DNA from: a virus
Strand: one strand, 5' to 3'
Length of the DNA: 64,000 nt
Virus record (IMG/VR): IMGVR_UViG_3300020172_005639
Span: 1 to 64,000 of that record
Shown: piece after piece, positions 1 through 53,094 of the stretch
How the letters are laid out: every line of letters begins with the position of its first letter
Numbering within the stretch: position 1 is the stretch's first letter
The notes under the pieces: model-generated
What the model was told of the DNA's origin: nothing
The model's database searches: none
Seen by the model: only the letters and a program-made list of their open reading frames with translations
Position numbers and translations under genes: made by a program

Positions 1-921
1 AGAGCCTTGATTGCCTTGGCGTCCTTGATTCCCTTGGTTGCCTTGTGTGCCTTGCGCGCCAGTCGCGCCTTGAGAGCCTTGATTGCCTTGGCGTCCTTGG
101 TTCCCTTGGTTCCCTTGGTTTCCTTGCGCTCCCTGTGCGCCAGAGGAGCCTGCGCTGCCTTGTCGTCCTTGGTTCCCCTGTGCTCCGGTTGTTCCCTGGT
201 TGCCTTGAGCGCCAATTGATCCTTGCGCGCCGCTGGCCCCCGCCAAGCCTTGCGAGCCTTGGTTTCCTTGCATACCTTGGGCTCCAGAAGCACCGCTTGC
301 GCCTTGGTTTCCCGATGAACCCTGCAGCCCGGCAATTCCTTGGTATCCCTGCGGACCAAACAGCCCCTGATGCCCCTGGAATCCCCTTGCGCCCTGGTAT
401 CCCTGGAGTCCTAGTCCTCCTTGGAATCCTTGCGATCCATCGAGTCCTTGGGCGCCGGTCGAACCTGCTGAACCTTGGGCGCCGGAGCCTGCCGCACCCT
501 GCGATCCCTGCGTTCCCGTTGCGCCTTGCGTACCTTGCCCTCCTAAGGCTCCTTGCGATCCTTGGAAGCCCTGTAGACCCGTGCCGCCCTGAGCCCCCGT
601 TGCTCCAGTTGGTCCTTGGTATCCTTGCTCGCCCTGAAAACCTTGCGGGCCACCCGATGGCCCCTGCAAGCCTTGTGCACCCGTCTGGCCCTGTGTGCCT
701 TGGGACCCCGTGACGCCCGCCCTTCCCTGCGAACCCTGAACACCGATGTTTCCCGGGGAACCCTGCGCCCCAGTTGGCCCAGGATAAACCTGACCTATCC
801 TCGCCGACACGACAAAGTCGCGAAGGTCTTGGGCAGAGATGGAGCCTTGGTTGTTGTCTGCAAAGAGACACAACAGCTCGTCCTCTGTCCTCGGCGTTCC
901 GGATTGGTTGCAATTAGCCAT
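1..921 (-). CDS. Collagen-like (Gly-X-Y, G-X-Q rich) protein, probable fibre; 3' end outside window
   Basis: Read manually on the minus strand from ATG at 921: MANCNQSGTPRTEDELLCLFADNNQGSISAQDLRDFVVSARIGQVYPGPTGAQGSPGNIGVQGSQG... then long QGNQG/QGRQG/TGAQG triplet runs to base 1. Missing from the ORF track because it has no stop in the window. Confidence 0.85.
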   Translation of the reverse strand, partial: MANCNQSGTPRTEDELLCLFADNNQGSISAQDLRDFVVSARIGQVYPGPTGAQGSPGNIGVQGSQGRAGVTGSQGTQGQTGAQGLQGPSGGPQGFQGEQGYQGPTGATGAQGGTGLQGFQGSQGALGGQGTQGATGTQGSQGAAGSGAQGSAGSTGAQGLDGSQGFQGGLGLQGYQGARGFQGHQGLFGPQGYQGIAGLQGSSGNQGASGASGAQGMQGNQGSQGLAGASGAQGSIGAQGNQGTTGAQGNQGRQGSAGSSGAQGAQGNQGNQGNQGRQGNQGSQGATGAQGTQGNQGNQGRQGNQGS

Positions 922-5743: not shown

Positions 5744-6495
5744 TGCACCCTTTTCTCGATGCTGCCGACTACAAACCACCCGAATGGCTCAGGAAATTCA
5801 GCGAGAAGCCGGTCATCATCGGCGACATGACTTTCTTGCCCCCCTGCTGCAACGTCGACGCCCTGCCAGGAAGAGAGGCTGCGTCCATCAGCTGTGGAGG
5901 CTTCGAGTGGATGACCTACAACTTCTCCACTCACGAGGAGGCGCTTGAACTCTACTCGCAGTACCAAATCGCAGAGGGGCACTGCGTATGCACGGGGCTC
6001 GGGCTAGGCGTTAGGGAGCAATGGCTGCTCCGCAACCCCAAGGTGACCAAGATCACCGTCATCGAGAAGTCGGCCGACGTCATCGAGTTCCACCGCAGGC
6101 ACAACCCCGAGACCACATCGAGGATAGAGATCGTCCACGGCGACGCCTCCGATTCGCATGGCGTGTGCGACACCCTGCTCTTGGACCACTACATCTACCC
6201 GTGCGAGTCCATCATCCCAGACGCAAGGCGCATCTGCTCTAAAATCATCCACAAGAGGTCTTGGTGGTGGCCCCTAGAGGATTACATCCTCTGCAACTCG
6301 CCGATAGGGGAGTCATACAGGTTCTTTCAGAGGCACCGGGAGCGCGAGATGCCCACGATTGCGGACGTCGGCGTGGAAGAACTCTACTCATTCCTGGCCG
6401 CATGGACTGCGACATGGTCGACGCGCGAGCGGAGGGAGATGATGGTGGGAGGTTCTATCTTCGGCAAATTGAGGGCGCAGACATGCGAATCATAG
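5743..6495 (+). CDS. SAM-dependent methyltransferase-like (spermidine synthase-like fold)
   Basis: GLGLG motif I, ITVIEKS, IVHGDA. Confidence 0.65.
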   Translation: MHPFLDAADYKPPEWLRKFSEKPVIIGDMTFLPPCCNVDALPGREAASISCGGFEWMTYNFSTHEEALELYSQYQIAEGHCVCTGLGLGVREQWLLRNPKVTKITVIEKSADVIEFHRRHNPETTSRIEIVHGDASDSHGVCDTLLLDHYIYPCESIIPDARRICSKIIHKRSWWWPLEDYILCNSPIGESYRFFQRHREREMPTIADVGVEELYSFLAAWTATWSTRERREMMVGGSIFGKLRAQTCES

Positions 6496-7265
6496 ACTGC
6501 TTCCTGTTCTACAACGAGGTTAAGATCCTCGAGATGAGGATGATGGAGCTCGCAAGGGTCGTCGACGCGTTCGTGGTGGTGGAGTCGATGGTCACGTTCA
6601 CGGGACAGAGCAAGCGGCTTTTTTTCCGAGAGAACGCAGCCAAGTTCGCAGCCAAGTTCCCGGGCGTCAACATCGTTCATGTCGTGGTGGACGACACCCC
6701 GGATGGCGAACCGTGGCAGCGTGAGGAGTACCAGCGCAACCAGATATCCTGCGGACTTAACCACTTGGATGCCGCCCCTTCGGACCTAATCCATATATCG
6801 GACGTCGATGAGATCCCCGATGCGAAAACACTCAATAAAGTCTTCTCTTCCCGCAGCCAGGCCTCTTACTCTCTGGAACAAGACCTCTACTACTACAACA
6901 TCGGCTGCAAGTGCTCATCCATTAAGTGGACGAGAGCCAAACTTATGCCCATGTGGCGGCTGACGGAAATAGGGAGCGTTGAGCAGGCCAGGAACAAGGA
7001 TTGCGCCGTTTTGCCTAGGGGGGGCTGGCACTTTAGCTACTTCGGCAGCCCAGAGTTCATAGCGAATAAGATAGGGGCTTTCTCCCACCCTGAGTACGAT
7101 GACCCCAAGTACACGGCGCCCCATGTCGTCAGGGAAAAGATTAGCGAGGGCAGGGACCTTTTCGAGAGGGAACTTAACTTCGATTCGGTTGACCCAAAGT
7201 CGAACGCCTACCTCCCGAATTATTGGCAGATGCTTATGGGGAGCGAAGCATGGACGCCCTCCTAG
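6483..7265 (+). CDS. glycosyltransferase family 17 (beta-1,4-GlcNAc transferase-like)
   Basis: DCFLFYNE, RE-YQRN, SDVDEIP, GGWHFSY motifs. Confidence 0.85.
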   Translation: MRIIDCFLFYNEVKILEMRMMELARVVDAFVVVESMVTFTGQSKRLFFRENAAKFAAKFPGVNIVHVVVDDTPDGEPWQREEYQRNQISCGLNHLDAAPSDLIHISDVDEIPDAKTLNKVFSSRSQASYSLEQDLYYYNIGCKCSSIKWTRAKLMPMWRLTEIGSVEQARNKDCAVLPRGGWHFSYFGSPEFIANKIGAFSHPEYDDPKYTAPHVVREKISEGRDLFERELNFDSVDPKSNAYLPNYWQMLMGSEAWTPS

Positions 7266-7972
7266 ACGGGCGTGAGGCTCAACTCCAGCGATTCGTGCCT
7301 GTCGTCGTCTGGGGGCATGCAGAGGTGGTCAGAGGGGTAATCGCTGGATATATTGTAAACTCTGTATCCCAAGGCCTTGGCGAGCTCAAGGGCCTCCGTG
7401 GATGATCCTCCCAAGTTCCTGTCATACTCGATGTGCATTACGGGCATGAAGCGTCGTATGGTGCCCATCCCGCCACGAATGGCTCTTGCCTCCTCGCCTT
7501 CTAGGTCTAGCTTTAGAAAGTCGAGCCTGCGTAGGCGCAGCGAATCTATCGTTACGCCTACGCATGGCATGCCATCTCCCACCTTTGCGCCCCCATAATT
7601 GACTAGATTGGCTCCATCGCAAAGTAGGCTAGGTATCTTCAGGCCACAGTTGCTGTCCCACAGCGCCTGCATCCGGAGGTCGCCGTTTTTAAGGCCGTTG
7701 AGCGGGAAGTTCTCTTTGAGTCGCTCATACATGATCGGCTGCGGTTCGAAGCAAAAAACCTTTCCAGAAGGCCCCACGCGCTTGGCCATGACTACGGCGT
7801 TGTATCCGAAGTTGGAGCCTCCATCGATGGCGACGGATTCCTCCCTTATCAGGAGGCAGACTGTAGAGAAATGCCTCTCCCACCATCCCGACTTCTTGAG
7901 CCGATCGGCGATTGCGTCGTTTGAAAATACTGAGAACCTGCCTTCGTGACATTCAACAATCTCAACGCTCAT
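7262..7972 (-). CDS. FkbM family methyltransferase
   Basis: IDGGSNFGY, FEPQP, LKLDLEGEE. Confidence 0.85.
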   Translation of the reverse strand: MSVEIVECHEGRFSVFSNDAIADRLKKSGWWERHFSTVCLLIREESVAIDGGSNFGYNAVVMAKRVGPSGKVFCFEPQPIMYERLKENFPLNGLKNGDLRMQALWDSNCGLKIPSLLCDGANLVNYGGAKVGDGMPCVGVTIDSLRLRRLDFLKLDLEGEEARAIRGGMGTIRRFMPVMHIEYDRNLGGSSTEALELAKALGYRVYNISSDYPSDHLCMPPDDDRHESLELSLTPV

Positions 7973-8939
7973 GACGCTCCTTGCCCGACAGGAATATCCT
8001 TTCGAAAATTTCCATGACGGTTTCTGGCGTAAACTGGTGGTATCTGACCCAGTCTCTGCCTTGAACGTCGGCATGGCTCAAACTCATCAGCAGCTCCAAG
8101 ACTGAGTCATAGTCAGAGTAGGTAATGCAAGCTTCGCCGAGATGATCAAGGTGAGCCTTGCCAGGACGCTCCCAGTCCGTTCCCGAAAGGTCGTATGCGA
8201 TCACTGGCTTTCCCCTCACGGCGAACTCGCCGACGGAAATCCCGAACGTTTCGCCACGAGAGTTAGCATGCAGCATTGCGTCGCACGAGTTTACAAACCT
8301 CGACTTGAAGGTCGGATCAATTGAGCACGGGAGAAAGACAACTCGATCGCTGTCGGTAAACCTGTCGCAGTTCATGAACAGGAAGCGTGCGTCGGGCCTT
8401 GCGGACGCCGCCTTCTCCACGGCTTGACGCACGAAAGGAATCTCGAAATTGCCTCCTCCATACCAGCCGAAGACGAAGGCGTCTGCTGGTATTCCGAGTT
8501 CTTGCCGCAGGTCTCCGGTGGCGCTGGGCGTAGCGATCATGTGGGGAACTGAAGGACACCCTTGGCCCCAATCGCGCGCCAGCCAGTCAGAAACATATGC
8601 GTAAACATCGCCGTGCGGCTCATAAATTGGGAACACTGCATGCACTAGGTTCTTGGCGGAGTCCACTAGAATTCCATCGTTGGCACCTGCCTTGAGCATG
8701 TAGAAGTGTGATGAGCCTGTAAAAAAGATCAAATCGTTCAAATCGTTCAAAACGTTCATTTGGGAAACTAATGAAACATCGAAATGTTGCGTAAGTCTTT
8801 CGTAGCCTGCCCCTTTCGCCCCAACGGCAACATGTGATTTATTTCCCAAAATCGACTGGTTGTGCATTGCGTAGTCGAAAAGGGCTGCGGAAGTGCCTCT
8901 TTCATTGGCATGAGGGTCATAGAAGAGAACTTGCTTCAT
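7962..8939 (-). CDS. GT-B glycosyltransferase (GT4-like)
   Basis: ERGT...DYA N-terminus; CDAMLHA...GETFGISVGEF. Confidence 0.75.
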   Translation of the reverse strand: MKQVLFYDPHANERGTSAALFDYAMHNQSILGNKSHVAVGAKGAGYERLTQHFDVSLVSQMNVLNDLNDLIFFTGSSHFYMLKAGANDGILVDSAKNLVHAVFPIYEPHGDVYAYVSDWLARDWGQGCPSVPHMIATPSATGDLRQELGIPADAFVFGWYGGGNFEIPFVRQAVEKAASARPDARFLFMNCDRFTDSDRVVFLPCSIDPTFKSRFVNSCDAMLHANSRGETFGISVGEFAVRGKPVIAYDLSGTDWERPGKAHLDHLGEACITYSDYDSVLELLMSLSHADVQGRDWVRYHQFTPETVMEIFERIFLSGKERHER

Positions 8940-8950
8940 TGGAAATTCAC

Positions 8951-9730
8951 CTAGAAAGACTTCGGAGGGACTATGATGCTGCCTTCTATGTTATCCTTCT
9001 TCTCCAAGATGCACAAATTGTGATAAAAATGAATGGCAAAAACATGTCTGTCAATATACGTTGGCTTGTAATCATTGTCTAAAAACTCCTCGTAGTTCAA
9101 CCCGTCCACGAGGGACTTAAGAAAAGCCATTGCAGTGTGCTTCGCTTCGGGGTCGCGCGATCCAAGCCATTGAACACCCCAGAACTCATCCCAGTAAGAA
9201 GTCTGCAAATCCTCGATTGCGTAATACCCACCAACCTTAAGGTGCGGGAACAGAATGTGGAAAGTCTTTATGGTCATGGGGTTAATATGACTGGCGTCAT
9301 CGATGATGATGTCTGGTTGACCGATGACCGAAAGGCAGCGGTTTATAAAGGCCTCGTCATCTTGACTGCCAACGAAGACCTTGACGCGCTCTTCTTCGCA
9401 ATGCCGCTTGTCCTCGATGTCTATCCCGTAAATTAGGGAATTTGGGAAATACCTCTTCCACATGCGAAGCGAACCACCGCCTGAGCTGTGATTGTAGCCT
9501 CCTATGCCAAGCTCAAGAATCCTCAACTTATTGAATCGTATCGGCGAAAAAAGGCGATTGTAGTGCTGTGTGTACTTGTGTTGGGAGCTTTTATCAGTGC
9601 CGTGCTCGTTGCTTAAATCGGTTAGTAGGTCCCGGATATCAAAACATGACTCAATTGAAGACTTAATGACAGATGCCACATTCTCAAGGCATAAATCATC
9701 GACGATTCTAAAGAGATCTTCCTTTTTCAT
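8951..9730 (-). CDS. class I SAM-dependent O-methyltransferase (MycE/TylE-like)
   Basis: HGTDK, ILELGIGGY, GGSLRMWKRYFP, IIIDDASH, YAIEDL. Confidence 0.85.
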   Translation of the reverse strand: MKKEDLFRIVDDLCLENVASVIKSSIESCFDIRDLLTDLSNEHGTDKSSQHKYTQHYNRLFSPIRFNKLRILELGIGGYNHSSGGGSLRMWKRYFPNSLIYGIDIEDKRHCEEERVKVFVGSQDDEAFINRCLSVIGQPDIIIDDASHINPMTIKTFHILFPHLKVGGYYAIEDLQTSYWDEFWGVQWLGSRDPEAKHTAMAFLKSLVDGLNYEEFLDNDYKPTYIDRHVFAIHFYHNLCILEKKDNIEGSIIVPPKSF

Positions 9731-9929
9731 GCAGAATTATAAGTAGCGGCAAGATCGCTGGGTTTTGAGCAAGTACAATTTGGTCGCATTGAGGTTGAAC
9801 GCGACTAGATGCCGGCTTAAGATTGCTTCGTCTTCTGCAATTGAACACCTATGTTGGTGGTCAGCAGAATTCATGTTTGTCACAGCACTTTCAACGCACT
9901 GAGACTGGAGCTCTCTCTCCACTTACGGC

Positions 9930-10386
9930 ATCACTGGGCTAATGCGCTGCCTGGGAAGTGCCATTCGTAAAAACCTGACGGGGCCCCTGCCGGGGTAAGT
10001 CTTAGTAGCCTTTTTAGGCGAACACCGCTACGAGAGGTGTTGATCCCGCAGCCAGCTAGGTAAGCTCGGAGTGGCAACAAAATGGCTGATTCGCGTAAGC
10101 AGACAAGTACGCGAGCCACTCTGATTTAGGACGCTGGACAAGAAAGCGCTTTGGTAATCGCTTCTTCCTAAGGTTCTCTCTCTGTCTGAAAGGTCTGCAA
10201 CGGGGACGATAGGTTTAAACATCGAAACCTCCGTTGAAAGATTATTCCAGACTGGATCCTCAAAAGGGGATCCAAATGAGTGAGGGTTCCTTGAAGTCAG
10301 CCCCTCGGTTTGGAAATTGATTTTAAAGTTAAAATCTCGAACAATCTGCTATTTGTCCGTCGGCAAGCCGAGGGTAGAAATTCCTC
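9930..10386. ncRNA. candidate large structured non-coding RNA (or structured origin) upstream of the PolA-like gene
   Basis: Longest gap without a credible ORF (9731-10386), with a dense run of inverted repeats: 9984-9995, 10008-10019, 10021-10041, 10083-10118, 10127-10170, 10184-10252, 10253-10274, 10319-10336. Boundaries and strand uncertain. Confidence 0.45.
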
Positions 10387-11700
10387 ATGCAAAACGATCT
10401 CCCCGAACTCCTGTCGAAGCATGCCCACGACATAGTGTTCGTTCGCACTTTTCCCTCCGTTCTTGATTTCACCGACAAGCGGCTCGATTGCTGGATTGAG
10501 TTCTTCTGCAAGGACGGCGAAACCTTCTCGGTAGCGCTTTCGGGAGATAACCTTCCGCTCATCATGAGCCTGCTCAAGATCACCGTCCTCTCTGAAGGCC
10601 GCAAGCTCATGTGTTGGGACTTCAAGCAACTTTGTTCCTTCGTGCTGGCCAAGACGGGAGTGCCGCTTTCCGTGTCGTGCAGTCTCATAGACCTCAAGCT
10701 GCTGGAGTCCTATAACGGTGTGCGCGCCGAGCCTCCACAGTCCTTCAGCGAGGCGATGGCTAGGCTGCGCAGGCTTGTCCAGGAGGGGGGCTACAAGCTA
10801 GGAGAGAAGATCTACAGGAACGTGCTTCTTCCACTAACCACCACGGTCATCCCGAGGCTTGAGACGGTAGGAATTCTCGACAAGGCTCGGGACTCTAAGG
10901 TTTACGCCAACTACGAGATCGATGGCCAGGAGAACGGCCGCCTCCGCTGCTCCGACGCGTTCCTCCTTGGCTATGTCCCCCATGCCATGAAGCCAGACTT
11001 TAGGGCGAACCTCAGGCCAATCGCCTACGATGAGATTTTCCTCTCCTTCGACTTCCGTGGGATGGAGGTGTACACCCTTGCCCATGTCAGCGGAGACTCC
11101 AAACTTAAGAACCTTTGCATGAGCCCGGACATTTACTCCGCAATATACGAGGCCGTGGTAGGGGAGCAGTACGTGGAGGGATCGCGCGAGCTTGCGAAAA
11201 AAATGTTCTTGCCGGTTATATATGGACAGGGGCCCTCCTCGCTGGCACGCTCGTGTCAGATTGACCACGGCAAAGCAGAACAAATCGTGCGCAGAATACG
11301 GTCGGAGTTCGCCGAGGCGAACGAATTCGTCTTGTCGCATGAAAGGCAGCTCGAAGGCTCGGGCTGCGTTCGCGATGTCTTCGGCAAGACGAGGCGGAAC
11401 TTCCCCGAGGGCAAGAGCTACCTTGCCCGCAACTTCGCCGTGCAGTCACCAGCCTCTGCAATATGCCTTGAGAAGCTTATAAACCTATATTTCGCTATAA
11501 ACGATAAGGCGCATATCGCTTATACTGTTCATGACGGCTACGTCCTCTACGTCGACAAAGGCGTCTGGCGTGAGGTCTTGGCGAGGGCACACGGGGTTCT
11601 TACCTCCGAGTGCGACCTGTGGCCGGGACTCAAGCTCAAGGTGAGCTGCAAGGCAGGCTCCAACCTAAATGAGCTCAAGCCCGTGAGGCCAGAAAACTGA
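10387..11700 (+). CDS. short family A DNA polymerase-like protein (degenerate exo domain, thumb largely deleted)
   Basis: NGRL, motif A DFRGMEV, motif B RELAKKMFLPVIYG, NFAVQSPAS, motif C VHDG. Confidence 0.85.
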   Translation: MQNDLPELLSKHAHDIVFVRTFPSVLDFTDKRLDCWIEFFCKDGETFSVALSGDNLPLIMSLLKITVLSEGRKLMCWDFKQLCSFVLAKTGVPLSVSCSLIDLKLLESYNGVRAEPPQSFSEAMARLRRLVQEGGYKLGEKIYRNVLLPLTTTVIPRLETVGILDKARDSKVYANYEIDGQENGRLRCSDAFLLGYVPHAMKPDFRANLRPIAYDEIFLSFDFRGMEVYTLAHVSGDSKLKNLCMSPDIYSAIYEAVVGEQYVEGSRELAKKMFLPVIYGQGPSSLARSCQIDHGKAEQIVRRIRSEFAEANEFVLSHERQLEGSGCVRDVFGKTRRNFPEGKSYLARNFAVQSPASAICLEKLINLYFAINDKAHIAYTVHDGYVLYVDKGVWREVLARAHGVLTSECDLWPGLKLKVSCKAGSNLNELKPVRPEN

Positions 11701-11722: not shown

Positions 11723-12286
11723 ATGCGAGAGATCATCTGCGAGTTTCCCATCACCGACTTGGAGTTCCAGGATTTAGACAAGAAGTTCAGCAAACTGTGC
11801 TGGCATGCCGCCCACGAGCTGAAGCACAAGAACTCAAACAACAACCTCGTTGAGGACGCCGAGGACATCAAGCAGGAGCTCCAGATGTCCATGTTGCGCG
11901 CCGGCTCTTACTACAAGCGCCAGGTCTACATTGAGAAATGTTTCGAGGCCGTCAACCGCCACGCCAAGGACAAATTCGTCGTACAGATAGTCCAGCAACT
12001 CCAGAAGCTTTGGGAGAACCGAACCCGACATGGAGCAAACAGGCAGAAGTACGGTAAGTTCCAAGAGCGGCTGCTGGACAAGCTTGTGAGCTCCATCGTC
12101 CCCAAGCACGAGCGTCCCGACAAGTCCGCACCACTGAACCTGGACGCCAAGTTCGCAACCTACTGCAAGGCCATCGTGTGGAACGGCCAGAAGAGCATGG
12201 GCAAAAAGATCACGCGTGAGAAGGCCATCCGCAGCGGCATGGTCAGCCTCAGCGAGTACGACTACCTCCAGTCGGGCCAAGGCTAA
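11723..12286 (+). CDS. putative divergent sigma factor-like protein (region 2-like)
   Basis: EDAEDIKQELQMSMLRA and KFATYCKAIVWN resemble sigma70 regions 2.2 and 2.3-2.4. Confidence 0.45.
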   Translation: MREIICEFPITDLEFQDLDKKFSKLCWHAAHELKHKNSNNNLVEDAEDIKQELQMSMLRAGSYYKRQVYIEKCFEAVNRHAKDKFVVQIVQQLQKLWENRTRHGANRQKYGKFQERLLDKLVSSIVPKHERPDKSAPLNLDAKFATYCKAIVWNGQKSMGKKITREKAIRSGMVSLSEYDYLQSGQG

Positions 12287-27991: not shown

Positions 27992-28071
27992 AGGGCTTGC
28001 CAATACCAACATTTCAAGAACGAAAGGAATCGGTTTTGATAACTTTCGTTCTACTGAACCATGGCTTCAGC

Positions 28072-28126
28072 GTAAATGTCGGTGTAAATGTCGGTGTAAA
28101 TGTCGGTGTAAATGTCGGTGTAAATG
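28072..28126. repeat. 12-bp tandem repeat (GTAAATGTCGGT) x4 plus partial GTAAATG
   Basis: Direct reading of the sequence. Confidence 0.95.
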
Positions 28127-28262
28127 GTCTTCATGCCTACATTCAGGCCGCTGATCGAGCTGCGTATCGGGACGTATTCCGCCGCCTCTCAGAAGCAATA
28201 GAGCCCAGGTTGGGTATATACAGCGTAGGTCGCACGACCCAACCTTGATGAGGGTTCCAGAA

Positions 28263-28562
28263 ATGAAAAAGAACAAGATACAAAGCCTCGTTATAGAACA
28301 CCTCCTAAAACACGGACAGCTAGAAATACTTCTTCCCGACGGAGTGAAACTGGAGATCGGGATGACGCAGGAGAGTACGAACGGGACCATCATCAAGCGC
28401 GACGATTACTGCTGGGTCATTGCGTCCAGGGAGGGTCGAGCAACAAGCCTGGACGCGTATAACATGGGCCTGAGGTTCTCGGCAGAGGACAAAACTCTGG
28501 TGCTTGAAGACGACTTTGTGGACAGCAACGGCGAGCATGTCCGGAGAGTCGACGTGGTTTAG
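28263..28562 (+). CDS. hypothetical protein
   Basis: ORF preceded by TATATA at 28215-28220. Confidence 0.65.
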   Translation: MKKNKIQSLVIEHLLKHGQLEILLPDGVKLEIGMTQESTNGTIIKRDDYCWVIASREGRATSLDAYNMGLRFSAEDKTLVLEDDFVDSNGEHVRRVDVV

Positions 28563-28888
28563 AAGGCATGGAGCATGCCAGCGACCCTTGTGACAGTCAG
28601 GCGCCCACGCTCAAGGCACGCCTCCAGCGTGGCCTCGGCGTAGCCTTGGCTTATCGGGGCAGACAGCTCAAACCATATCAGAAAGCCAGCTTGCGTTAGG
28701 CAGAACCTTGATACGGTGAGCTTGGTTCCTTGGTTTGTTATATGCCCCTCATTTATAATTGCCAACTGGTTAGCGCCTGCGCGCAGGGCTTGGATCAGCA
28801 GGTCCAGAACGGATTTGCAATCCATGAATTTCGTCCAGTGGGCGACAAGAAGCCCCTCGAGCTTCTGTTCGTCGAATACTTTGTCCAT
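28559..28888 (-). CDS. hypothetical protein
   Basis: ORF convergent with the previous gene. Confidence 0.55.
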   Translation of the reverse strand: MDKVFDEQKLEGLLVAHWTKFMDCKSVLDLLIQALRAGANQLAIINEGHITNQGTKLTVSRFCLTQAGFLIWFELSAPISQGYAEATLEACLERGRLTVTRVAGMLHAF

Positions 28889-28911
28889 GTGCGAGCCCTT
28901 GGGGGTCTTCA

Positions 28912-29181
28912 ATGAAAAAAACAGGATTCTTTCTTAAAGAGTATTGCCAGAAGCTATCGGACGAGCATGTCAGGTTTTTGTATGGCCGACTTTCCCAAAG
29001 GCTAGGGGGCGACCTCGCTGAGGCGGTGACCTTCCTGTCACAGTTCAGGGACATCGACCGATGGCTCAGCGTCGCTGAGGATTCGGATGAGTTCTATGAT
29101 GCAGTCGACCAAGTCCACCTCGCAGTTGAGAAGGAGCACGAGCGTAGGCTTAAGTATTCCGAGTGTTCGCCCCGTCACTAA
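28912..29181 (+). CDS. hypothetical protein
   Basis: 89 aa ORF. Confidence 0.6.
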   Translation: MKKTGFFLKEYCQKLSDEHVRFLYGRLSQRLGGDLAEAVTFLSQFRDIDRWLSVAEDSDEFYDAVDQVHLAVEKEHERRLKYSECSPRH

Positions 29182-29204
29182 TTGGCGAAACGACCCGAAG
29201 TCTA

Positions 29205-29240
29205 GAGGCCCCAGCGAAAGCCCGGGGCCTCCGGCTTTTT
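29205..29240 (+). terminator. probable rho-independent terminator
   Basis: GAGGCCCC...GGGGCCTC stem followed by CGGCTTTTT. Confidence 0.5.
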
Positions 29241-29289
29241 GTGGTAGAATATCGGTGGGCCAAAGCCGAATATAAGGCAAGGAGAGAAA

Positions 29290-51938: not shown

Positions 51939-52746
51939 GGAGTCCCGAAAAAGGGCAGCGAGCTATTTTAGCTTCGGCATTTGGCAAACCCTGATTGTTT
52001 AGTATCCTCTTCCGCTCCATGTAAAACGTGGTTGAGTCTTTGAAGGAATTCTCCTTCGGTTTTCCGAACTTTCTTTCGTTGTAACGCATCCAGTATTCAA
52101 AAACTTCATTTGACTCTTGGGTTTCCCTGTTCGCTTCTGACACTTCCAGTTTCCAATCCGATGAGTATGTCTCTCTCTGCATTGGTATCAACTGCGCTAT
52201 CGGGTTCGATTGGTCTCTTCTAAATGACACAGGCTCGTTGATCCTGTCGAAGACAAGGTTCATCCAGATGTCATATTGCATCCAGTCGGTTTCAAGAACT
52301 CCGTCCATGACATGGAAGGGCTGGGACTGGTAATTTATCGGGCTTTTGATGTGCAGGCACCATCCGGGTGGCGTCTTGAAGATCAGGCCGGTCCACAGCT
52401 GCAGAACGTTCGGCTCAACGCTGCCGAGAGACATCTTTGTCCTTCCCGTTCCGAACGGGCACCATTTGTCGGGGTTGACGCCGTCCTCGGGCCTCACCAG
52501 CCTTCGCACCAAGTGGGCGTCTTCGTCGGAGTTGTAGTACTCGTCTAGGAACCTGACCCCGAACTTTTCGCCCGTCCACACGACGTCAAAGTCGGATGGA
52601 GGGTAAAGCCACCAGCCAAGTGCGTTCACCGTGCTGAAGGGGTGGCACCACTTCACGCCCTCCTTATGGGCCGTACCGCAAAGGGTTTTCTCGGCCTTTT
52701 GTATGCGGCAGGCCTGTGGGTGCAGTTGGTAGGCCTGCAGCGACAT
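51898..52746 (-). CDS. DUF6065-like protein
   Basis: C-PF...N..GW, FKTPPGW, PIN, GVLETDW, PIAQLIP; start MSLQAY directly at the tmRNA 3' end. Confidence 0.65.
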   Translation of the reverse strand: MSLQAYQLHPQACRIQKAEKTLCGTAHKEGVKWCHPFSTVNALGWWLYPPSDFDVVWTGEKFGVRFLDEYYNSDEDAHLVRRLVRPEDGVNPDKWCPFGTGRTKMSLGSVEPNVLQLWTGLIFKTPPGWCLHIKSPINYQSQPFHVMDGVLETDWMQYDIWMNLVFDRINEPVSFRRDQSNPIAQLIPMQRETYSSDWKLEVSEANRETQESNEVFEYWMRYNERKFGKPKENSFKDSTTFYMERKRILNNQGLPNAEAKIARCPFSGLHDNPRESDGQNMV

Positions 52747-53094
52747 GGAGTTGAGGGGAGTCGAACCCCTGTCTTCAGCGAGAGACATCCGGACCTCTAC
52801 ATGCTTTTTGCGTCGTTCGTTTTCTGTCTTCGGACCACGGCGCACAGAGGTCTCTAGACAACACCAACATAAACTATCGCCACGCAAGTTGGCAGCGCGA
52901 CGTTTGCGGGATTTACTTCGGGCCTTTGGGCGCTACCCGCTCGCCCCCTCGGCCCGTGGCAGACCTAAATTAGGCAGCCAGGGAAAGAACAGTTTCGTCG
53001 TTTGTTGCGACAGCCGAATTTTTAAGAGGCCATTCGGCCAACCTCTGCATGCCATCCGGGCGCCGCACCGTTGAATCGATACCGGAACAACCCC
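52746..53094 (-). ncRNA. ssrA: transfer-messenger RNA
   Basis: 5' GGGGUUG pairs with 3' CAACUCC-A (G3.U); T-arm GGGGUUCGACUCCCC; internal tag ORF ATNDETVLSLAA* (53008-52970); about 349 nt. Confidence 0.92.

Follow-up and report, generated by a model that had tools for sequence, protein, structure and literature searches.

A predicted, multiply pseudoknotted RNA with twin identical words upstream of a thumb-reduced family A DNA polymerase gene in huge freshwater phages

We analysed a stretch of 64,000 nucleotides of viral DNA (the window), which is the first 64 kb of the 120.5-kb IMG/VR virus record IMGVR_UViG_3300020172_005639. CheckV assigns this record a completeness of 28%, which at a length of 120.5 kb indicates a fragment of a very large phage. 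A gap of 656 nt in the window separates two divergent open reading frames (ORFs), a methyltransferase-like PHROG at 8951-9730 on the minus strand and, on the plus strand, the gene of a family A DNA polymerase (PolA) with a reduced thumb. PolA is followed on its 3' side by a 187-aa ORF, a 270-aa ORF and a DnaB-like helicase, and since these four genes stand in a row, the gap heads a replication module. The plus strand of the gap at 9967-10313 is almost certainly a real structured RNA of a new family, on the evidence of sequence conservation and covariation given below; we describe it as a predicted, multiply pseudoknotted noncoding RNA (ncRNA), with a gene of its own or as the 5' portion of a transcript, and call it the "twin-box" RNA, since the same short word occurs twice in it.

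An earlier note on this DNA, made from its letters alone, had described a gap of ~650 nt packed with inverted repeats, and the measurements agree with that description. The plus strand of the 656-nt gap folds with a minimum free energy (MFE) of -229.7 kcal/mol compared to -201.0 +/- 5.1 for 20 shuffles (z -5.6); for the minus strand the corresponding z is -3.1. This strand asymmetry, together with a conserved G-U pair that closes hairpin C, is why we place the RNA on the plus strand. The gap is plausibly the longest non-coding gap of the window, as the note had stated; the other large stretch without long ORFs, 28013-29289, contains several ORFs of 89-117 aa. Only the part from 9967 to ~10313 is conserved. 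Conservation begins sharply at 9967 (GTAAAAACCTG) and the 3' edge follows CTCGGTTTGG, and positions 9731-9966 are not common to the distant relatives L001 and L002. The PolA proteins of this pair are 58% and 49% identical to that of the window, and ~350 nt of the DNA upstream of them is conserved above the level of the protein, with compensatory changes. Among relatives the RNA measures 350-470 nt and has at least three pseudoknots. No ORF is conserved within it, as the longest stop-free stretch (33-95 codons) varies among relatives in strand, frame and position alike, which rules out a protein gene in the gap.

Covariation provides the strongest evidence for the fold. Across 21 sequences, the 23 pairs of five nested helices in the 5' domain are 89.1% paired and 18 of the 23 have changed on both sides; their covariation score is 0.420 versus 0.170 in shuffles, a value that none of 500 shuffles reaches, and in control alignments with slid partners pairing falls to 34-44%. 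Covariation upstream of PolA homologues, which the earlier note had suggested looking for, is therefore present. Hairpin C is 98.8% paired with all four of its pairs changed on both sides, and its closing pair is G-U in 14/21 sequences. Helix A replaces C-G by U-A in 5/21, and in a permutation test of A:A' none of 2000 permutations reached the observed value. Helix B appears weaker, with only 59.5% of cells paired in the MAFFT alignment because of register shifts; it is also represented in the alignment A5 made with a covariance model (CM). Helix B and hairpins C, E and F are predicted to form a four-way junction enclosed in a pseudoknot of helices A and H (Table 1). The CM of the 5' domain (R1) comprises 97 positions and the 23 pairs.

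Table 1 Predicted RNA elements and the adjacent polymerase gene, in window coordinates
Feature	Position	Strand	Description
Conserved structured-RNA core, ~350 nt	9967-10313	+	Alignments A1, A2 and A6; nhmmer 9969-10337; CM R1 9969-10067, 91 bits
Strand A (ACCTG)	9973-9977	+	With A' (TAGGT, 10057-10061) forms the P3-like helix in the first pseudoknot
Strand B (CGGG)	9979-9982	+	Pairs with 10045-10048 (CCCG); closes the junction of hairpins C, E and F
Hairpin C (GCCCC-TGCC-GGGGT)	9983-9996	+	Conserved closing G-U pair
Twin box 1 (AAGTC)	9997-10001	+	Single-stranded joiner of hairpins C and E; followed by conserved TTWGTAG
Hairpin E (GCC-TTTTTA-GGC)	10008-10019	+	96.2% paired; 4/4 pairs changed on both sides
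Hairpin F (AACACC / GGTGTT), loop GCTACGAGA	10021-10041	+	96% paired
H 5' strand (CCAGC)	10052-10056	+	Abuts A'; pairs with 10133-10137 (GCTGG); P7-like, crosses helix A
J-L arm, P8-like	10066-10124	+	J stem 10066-10075 with 10115-10124; L stem 10091-10095 with 10110-10114
K (GCTGAT)	10085-10090	+	In the J-arm internal loop; pairs with K' at 10296-10301
Conserved joiner TTTAGGAC (TTTAGGA)	10125-10132	+	Between the J arm and the H 3' strand; J8/7 position of a group I intron; TT invariant in A6
Q arm, long stem with 3-bp hairpin cap	10198-10236	+	Conserved loop TTAAAC at 10215-10220; C-G 8, U-A 12; AA invariant in A6
Variable hairpin V2 (GGATCC...GGATCC)	10254-10273	+	Position conserved, sequence not
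3' motif	10290-10313	+	Tied to the core by two pseudoknots, K:K' and F-loop:F'
Twin box 2 (AAGTC)	10294-10298	+	Identical to box 1; its last 3 nt and AGC (10296-10301) form K'
F' (CTCG)	10304-10307	+	Pairs with hairpin F loop bases CGAG at 10031-10034
AT-rich palindrome/hairpin GATTTTAA-AG-TTAAAATC	10319-10336	+	Between the RNA and PolA; similar palindromes by eye in relatives
Family A DNA polymerase, 437 aa, reduced thumb	10387-11700	+	First gene of the replication module

The long-range helices were assessed by anchored permutation tests (2000 permutations), which we regard as fitted searches. Helix H, which crosses helix A, occurs as at least 14 different complementary sequence pairs among relatives, with a self value of 5.0 against a cross value of 3.7; no permutation reached the observed value. 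RNAalifold returned no pairs on the MAFFT alignment of the H/J/L region, an outcome due to register shifts. The pairing K:K' joins the internal loop of the J arm to the segment of the 3' motif that reads CAGC or CGGC; its variable pair is U-A in 11 sequences, C-G in 7 and A-U in 1 (0/2000 permutations). Between the F loop and F' the variable pair is G-C in 11 sequences and A-U in 10 with none broken, and four matched types occur in a wider set (CGAG/CTCG, CGGG/CCCG, CAAG/CTTG and CAGG/CCTG). The loop of the L stem contains a conserved GCAGACAAG, and a region of variable sequence lies after the H 3' strand, ahead of the Q arm. The inverted repeats that the earlier note had listed coincide with these elements: 10021-41 is hairpin F, 10083-118 the L stem within the J arm, 10184-252 the Q arm and 10253-74 hairpin V2, and the repeat at 10319-36 is an AT-rich hairpin downstream of the RNA. 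We also considered a helix between the 3' strand of hairpin C and the 3' motif, a closure like that of SL2 in the DRT2 defence system. It can form in the window but is missing from L139-type sequences and competes with the better-supported F-loop:F' pairing, and it was rejected.

The order of these helices is like that of P3, P7, P8 and J8/7 of group I introns, and this topology raises the alternative of a self-processing ribozyme whose two reaction sites would be the twin words, the ~300-nt interval between them being excised, circularised or exchanged in an intron-like or rolling-circle manner. Invariant unpaired bases in the junctions and loops, and identical words at both borders, would suit such an activity. 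However, neither the window nor ten relatives gave a match to group I, group II, RNase P, hairpin, hammerhead or other ribozymes in Rfam at E values up to 10, and we could identify neither a counterpart of P4-P6 nor an internal guide or terminal G. Covarying pairings (A:A', B:B', F:F' and K:K') join segments that lie outside the words to segments that lie between them, which speaks for a single fold. Among the sequencing runs on record, none of RNA contains this stretch; the single one labelled RNA-Seq is probably DNA and contains a relative that is 93% identical, in whose contigs no joints were seen, an observation on contigs that counts neither for nor against. We regard a ribozyme as highly improbable.

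Comparison with known families was negative at the element. A search of the whole window with Rfam 15 (4227 families) yielded at gathering score only the phage-encoded transfer-messenger RNA (tmRNA) at 52743-53094 on the minus strand (107 bits; tag peptide DETVLSLAA), and ARAGORN likewise found only the tmRNA. With E values up to 10, positions 9500-10600 gave three matches of 10-14 bits, all far under gathering, and ten relatives gave nothing recurrent at the element. The statement that the region is not a tRNA, tmRNA, RNase P or recognisable intron thus stands, and the search of Rfam and of ORFs that had been suggested revealed neither a family match nor a conserved protein gene. RF01718 (Polynucleobacter-1), sought in G000, G001 and G002 at E values up to 10, gave a sole hit of 8.4 bits at 88079-88162 (minus strand) of G000, far from the RNA and at a level that control genomes reach too. 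A prophage attachment site, for which the gap would hold a copy of the tmRNA 3' end, was rejected: no direct repeat joins the two places, or joins the tmRNA end to anywhere else in the window, and the record is a virus contig. A literature search, which did not reach motifs given in supplements alone, found neither this RNA nor any structured RNA associated with a family A polymerase.

The earlier note had offered a structured replication origin as an alternative to an RNA, and one may extend this to any DNA-level element without a functional RNA, that is an origin or protein-binding region whose single strands fold. The gap does lie at a divergent gene boundary at the head of a replication module, and the cumulative GC skew of the window is flat with a minimum around 4-13 kb and rises thereafter. 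Yet the two strands fold unequally well and G-U pairs are conserved, both of which disfavour this reading; three covarying long-range pseudoknots also suit RNA better, and neither iterons nor DnaA-box arrays were seen in the 656-nt gap, an iteron-like array being located elsewhere in the window. We find a purely DNA-level element hardly credible. The array in question, at 28072-28126, is a perfect tandem repeat of the 12-nt unit GTAAATGTCGGT in 4.6 copies just past the ORFs that end near 28012; judged from its sequence, it could serve protein binding or be an origin separate from the RNA locus.

The distribution of the RNA was followed through its neighbour. At least 242 public proteins, on contigs of up to 513 kb, are related to PolA, and after the first pair (L001 and L002) we took 160 loci around PolA relatives from metagenome and viral contigs. 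Iterated nhmmer searches located the element in 87 loci besides the window, giving 32 distinct full-length copies, and a search with CM R1 added more distant members. All nhmmer and CM hits lie upstream of PolA on the PolA strand, with the nhmmer hits ending ~60-150 nt or more before the start codon; the lone minus-strand row is L009, a pattern-scan locus on the contig of L001 that was not oriented by PolA. Among distinct loci with at least 500 nt of upstream sequence, the element is present upstream of PolA on the same strand in 52/94. Detection varies with the identity of PolA to the window protein: 8/8 at 50% or more, 26/29 at 45-50%, 6/11 at 40-45% and 12/17 at 36-40%, and some loci scored as misses show the 3' motif by eye. 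The position and strand of the RNA relative to PolA are kept down to ~38% PolA identity while the gene upstream of the RNA changes. Each of three genome records (120, 173 and 381 kb) contains one CM hit, in each case beside PolA. DNA pattern scans were also used. The first returned three known contigs and four chance matches and the second a single stretch; among the 80 matches listed for the third, four were confirmed by the CM, three on known contigs and one new (L237). L237, which was thus found from the RNA pattern, has PolA downstream. Neither blastn of the gap against GenBank phages nor a PolA search in one genome per prokaryote species produced a match. From these comparisons, the predicted RNA is conserved across many uncultured freshwater huge-phage contigs and appears tightly linked to the thumb-reduced PolA within this clade of huge freshwater phages.

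The polymerase itself is unusual. It matches DNA_pol_A of Pfam (E 4.4e-25) and an NCBIfam model, and its AlphaFold2 (AF2) model, with a predicted local distance difference test score (pLDDT) of 93.7 and a predicted template modelling score (pTM) of 0.92, aligns along its entire length with Pol nu, Bst Pol I, Pol theta and Klenow (TMq ~0.7-0.76, E ~1e-20; Foldseek E 9e-21 to Pol nu). The N-terminal domain is exonuclease-like. When a profile built on 20 members of the family is aligned to Bst Pol I, the alignment starts beyond the thumb, at chain residue 303, and the protein is ~75-140 residues shorter at the thumb, the model having ~140 residues fewer than the large fragment, in accord with the earlier observation that PolA lacks most of its thumb. 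Residues D222, E227, R267, K271, Y279, G280, H382 and D383, which we take to belong to motifs A, B and C, are invariant in 20/20 sequences. Sequence and model together suggest that PolA is probably an active Klenow-like enzyme with a reduced thumb. Among GenBank phages it has a single full-length relative, 33% identical, in the uncultured 595-kb LR756511, and none in a cultured phage. In that genome (LR756511.1) the PolA relative at 1159-2445 is preceded by an overlapping ORF at 2-1162 of at least 386 aa, whose C-terminus (…IHDS…) resembles the end of another family A polymerase and suggests tandem PolA-like genes.

An unexpected feature of the RNA is the pair of words. The 5-nt boxes 1 and 2 of the window are the same, and the corresponding words are identical to each other in 32/32 distinct full-length copies and in 33/34 distinct CM hits, a count that includes three in which the script chose another candidate and the full-length comparison shows identity. 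Eleven variants of the word occur among the phages (AAGTC, GAGTC, AGGTC, GGGTC, GTGAC, GAGAC, AGACC, GAACC, AAGTA, TTAGTC and TAGAACCTT), and the identical stretch reaches 8-9 nt in L033 and L134. The words are 250-429 nt apart and enclose most of the folded RNA. As both drift between phages yet match within each RNA, we read them as a case of covariation by identity and not by complementarity.

We can think of three causes for such identity: alternate pairing of both words with one partner, recombination, or transfer of a nascent strand. Searches of the RNA and its flanks for a complement in cis, of all 5 nt or of 4 of 5 with G-U allowed, gave no column common to all sequences; L026 and L048 have no complement at all, and no 4-of-5 column is present in more than 14/21. 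The joiner GATTT, the Q-hairpin GGYTT and the 3' half of K were each tried as partners, and each suits some lineages only. K pairs with part of box 2, involving 2 to 5 of its bases according to the lineage. This pairing does not account for the fact that box 1 takes part in every change; for instance, the U to A change in GTGAC and GAGAC breaks the pair with K and nevertheless occurs in both boxes. Pairing of the two words with each other is ruled out, most variants not being self-complementary, and so are sites of site-specific recombination, for which the flanks of the two words are too unlike, and translational bypass, as no ORF enters box 1. To our knowledge, the mechanisms that require identical words are those of nascent-strand transfer or realignment, as in DRT2, telomerase and the retroviral R repeats.

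These considerations lead us to propose that the RNA, placed at the head of the replication module, may work with the neighbouring thumb-reduced PolA as a partner linked to replication, either as a primer at an origin or held by PolA as a template or scaffold. The twin words would then be donor and acceptor sites for a nascent strand whose 3' end complements one word and which could re-anneal to the other in a strand transfer, or "prime and realign", step. That the function of the RNA is tied to replication or to PolA is the reading to which its position points, and we hold it with slightly more doubt than belief. That the twin words are used for strand transfer, a proposal based on analogy, we consider decidedly unlikely. 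It is less likely again, though conceivable by the same analogy, that the RNA and PolA form a ribonucleoprotein (RNP) in which the RNA is copied, with the nascent DNA jumping from the 5' word to the 3' word, or from the RNA to a matching DNA site, to give tandem or realigned DNA or to prime the genome. The earlier suggestion of a template, in the manner of retrons or telomerase, receives indirect backing from twin words that flank ~250-430 nt, which may be compared with ACA-1 and ACA-2 of DRT2.

Several observations weigh against a role of this kind. The RNA was detected in 0/29 loci whose PolA is less than 36% identical, and in LR756511 the gap before PolA is missing altogether. The loci were mostly gathered through PolA, which biases the linkage count towards adjacency. 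A sigma-70-like promoter (for example TTGCAA, 17 nt, TATACT) lies between the RNA and PolA in 20/41 distinct sequences, 7-40 nt or more before the polA start, compared to 2/41 with one upstream of the RNA; the window lineage has none. The presence of these sites implies that RNA and PolA are probably separate transcription units in many phages, and the sites together with a spacer that varies from ~70 to 260 nt favour an RNA with a gene of its own, or at least one without action on the ribosome-binding site. As for the words, they sit inside a tightly folded RNA and not around an open template, with box 2 partly engaged by K, and a subfamily (L040-L042, L118, L119 and L124) lacks a twin word at the homologous place by eye, its C/E joiner being reduced to 5 nt. 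The length of the inter-box unit is a multiple of 3 in only 10/32 copies, and the repeat-gene outcome of DRT2 is excluded. A Neo-like repeat gene made by rolling-circle copying had been tried as a candidate and failed in 32/32, a threefold concatemer of the unit having at least three stops in all six frames. Of the proposal that the RNA is cognate to the polymerase, what stands is a conserved, covarying RNA linked to the short PolA within a clade; a strict module is disfavoured by the absence below 36% identity and the promoter-like site between the two in about half of the sequences.

Some of these observations would be expected of an "ornate" phage RNA that stands alone, as GOLLD and ROOL do, that is an RNA-only particle, a decoy or a host-directed factor, with the adjacency of PolA being no more than gene order inherited within one clade. 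Promoters that separate the RNA from PolA, a variable spacer and distant PolA relatives without the RNA would all follow, and the size and multi-pseudoknot complexity recall the orphan large RNAs. Such an RNA would not be expected, however, to keep its position and strand relative to PolA to ~38% identity while its upstream neighbour changes, or to occur in a single copy per genome and always at PolA; the twin words would be left unexplained, and no CM match was found to GOLLD, ROOL, OLE, HEARO or raiA. We consider this alternative unlikely, although it deserves to be taken seriously.

A cis-acting leader of the polA mRNA, either a sensor or an autoregulatory operator of transcription or translation to which PolA binds, would be consistent with an RNA that lies upstream of polA, close to it and on the same strand. 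In the window lineage 11 nt of the 3' motif (10302-10312) are 91% complementary to 10364-10374, next to the GAGG before the ATG, and the pairing is present in the MFE fold too. It is not conserved in L001 or L002, however, and in a relative that is 93% identical variants at 10310 and 10365 break it without compensation. The variable spacer, often with a promoter-like site, and the size of 350-470 nt with at least three pseudoknots, well above that of known leaders, also stand against a leader, which we judge improbable. The preferred reading thus remains that of an RNA linked to replication or to PolA, with the reservations given above.

Some further features of the region may be recorded. The palindrome at 10319-10336 could be a 3' hairpin of the RNA or a DNA operator. 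In the interval between the RNA and the promoter-like site of polA, L033 (~2330-2410) and also L023, L030 and L039 have, by eye, one or two 16-bp palindromes of the form ATGATT-N4-AATCAT, which look like operators of a dimeric DNA-binding regulator. The 187-aa ORF at 11723-12286 (plus strand) directly follows PolA and keeps this place in relatives. It has no Pfam, PHROG or NCBIfam family, and a lead to sigma-70 region 2 in the protein Atlas is weak (rank 23, score 0.95); its product may act as a sigma-like factor of the phage or as an accessory to the polymerase. On the other side of the RNA, directly upstream, methyltransferase-like genes (FkbM domain; PHROG methyltransferase) cluster with genes for glycosyltransferases (GT17 and a weak GT1), at 7262-9730 on the minus strand and 6261-7265 on the plus strand. 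The ORF at 1-921 (minus strand), which runs off the window edge, consists of 9-nt repeats (CCTTGNNNN on the plus strand) that on the minus strand would encode Gly-X-Y, collagen-like triplets.

Large RNAs with several covarying pseudoknots are rare, and the known ones are mostly ribozymes or RNP cores. The twin-box RNA would add a new large, multiply pseudoknotted family without a catalogued relative, next to an unusual thumb-reduced polymerase. The forced identity of two words that lack a complement in cis is a constraint that ordinary RNA folding does not produce. If the words do serve strand transfer, phages have an undescribed way to start or programme DNA synthesis; if they do not, the constraint on their identity needs a new explanation. 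Should the RNA be copied within an RNP, a module with a family A polymerase would for the first time have an RNA-templated or RNA-programmed reaction to its name.

Among known systems, GOLLD (RF01998), ROOL (RF03087), OLE, HEARO and raiA are likewise large and highly structured, often phage-borne, and of a function that is obscure or only recently studied; the RNA described here differs from them in its lack of a CM match, its fixed place by a polymerase gene and its twin words. The likeness to group I introns (RF00028) is one of topology only, with helix A as P3, helix H as P7 (whose 5' strand is contiguous with the P3 3' strand), the J-L arm as P8 and the joiner as J8/7. A four-way junction of helix B with hairpins C, E and F takes the place of P4-P6, there is no CM match, and neither P1 with an internal guide, a terminal G nor host-gene exons were identified, the upstream sequence being unconserved and the upstream gene on the other strand.

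In DRT2, identical ACA-1 and ACA-2 motifs at the borders of the template let the nascent cDNA jump (PMC11100668). DRT2 and, as reported in preprint abstracts, DRT10 have a structured, pseudoknotted ncRNA directly upstream of the polymerase gene and on its strand, as at our locus. In DRT2 short identical motifs border a segment, as the twin words do here, and by this likeness the words may be template borders. The differences are that the enzyme of DRT2 is a reverse transcriptase whereas ours is a family A DNA polymerase, that DRT2 is a bacterial defence locus and ours a phage one, and that here no ORF runs through the concatemer and the words, 250-430 nt apart, enclose most of the RNA.

RNA II of ColE1 with DNA polymerase I, and the R-loop origins of T4 (oriF and oriG) and T7, are cases in which a structured transcript beside an origin primes a family A polymerase. 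Like them, the RNA here heads a replication module beside PolA; unlike them, it comes with no antisense partner, RNase H site or R-loop-forming run that we could identify, and compared to RNA II it is far more knotted and has twin words for which RNA II offers no counterpart. Telomerase RNA is a pseudoknotted polymerase partner whose template has the same short word at both ends for realignment. The twin-box RNA resembles it in being pseudoknotted with a repeated short word and, if our reading holds, in having a polymerase as its partner; telomerase, by contrast, is a reverse transcriptase whose gene is not adjacent to that of its RNA, and only a few nt separate the repeats in its short, open template. 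The retroviral R repeats, finally, carry out a comparable strand transfer with identical words.

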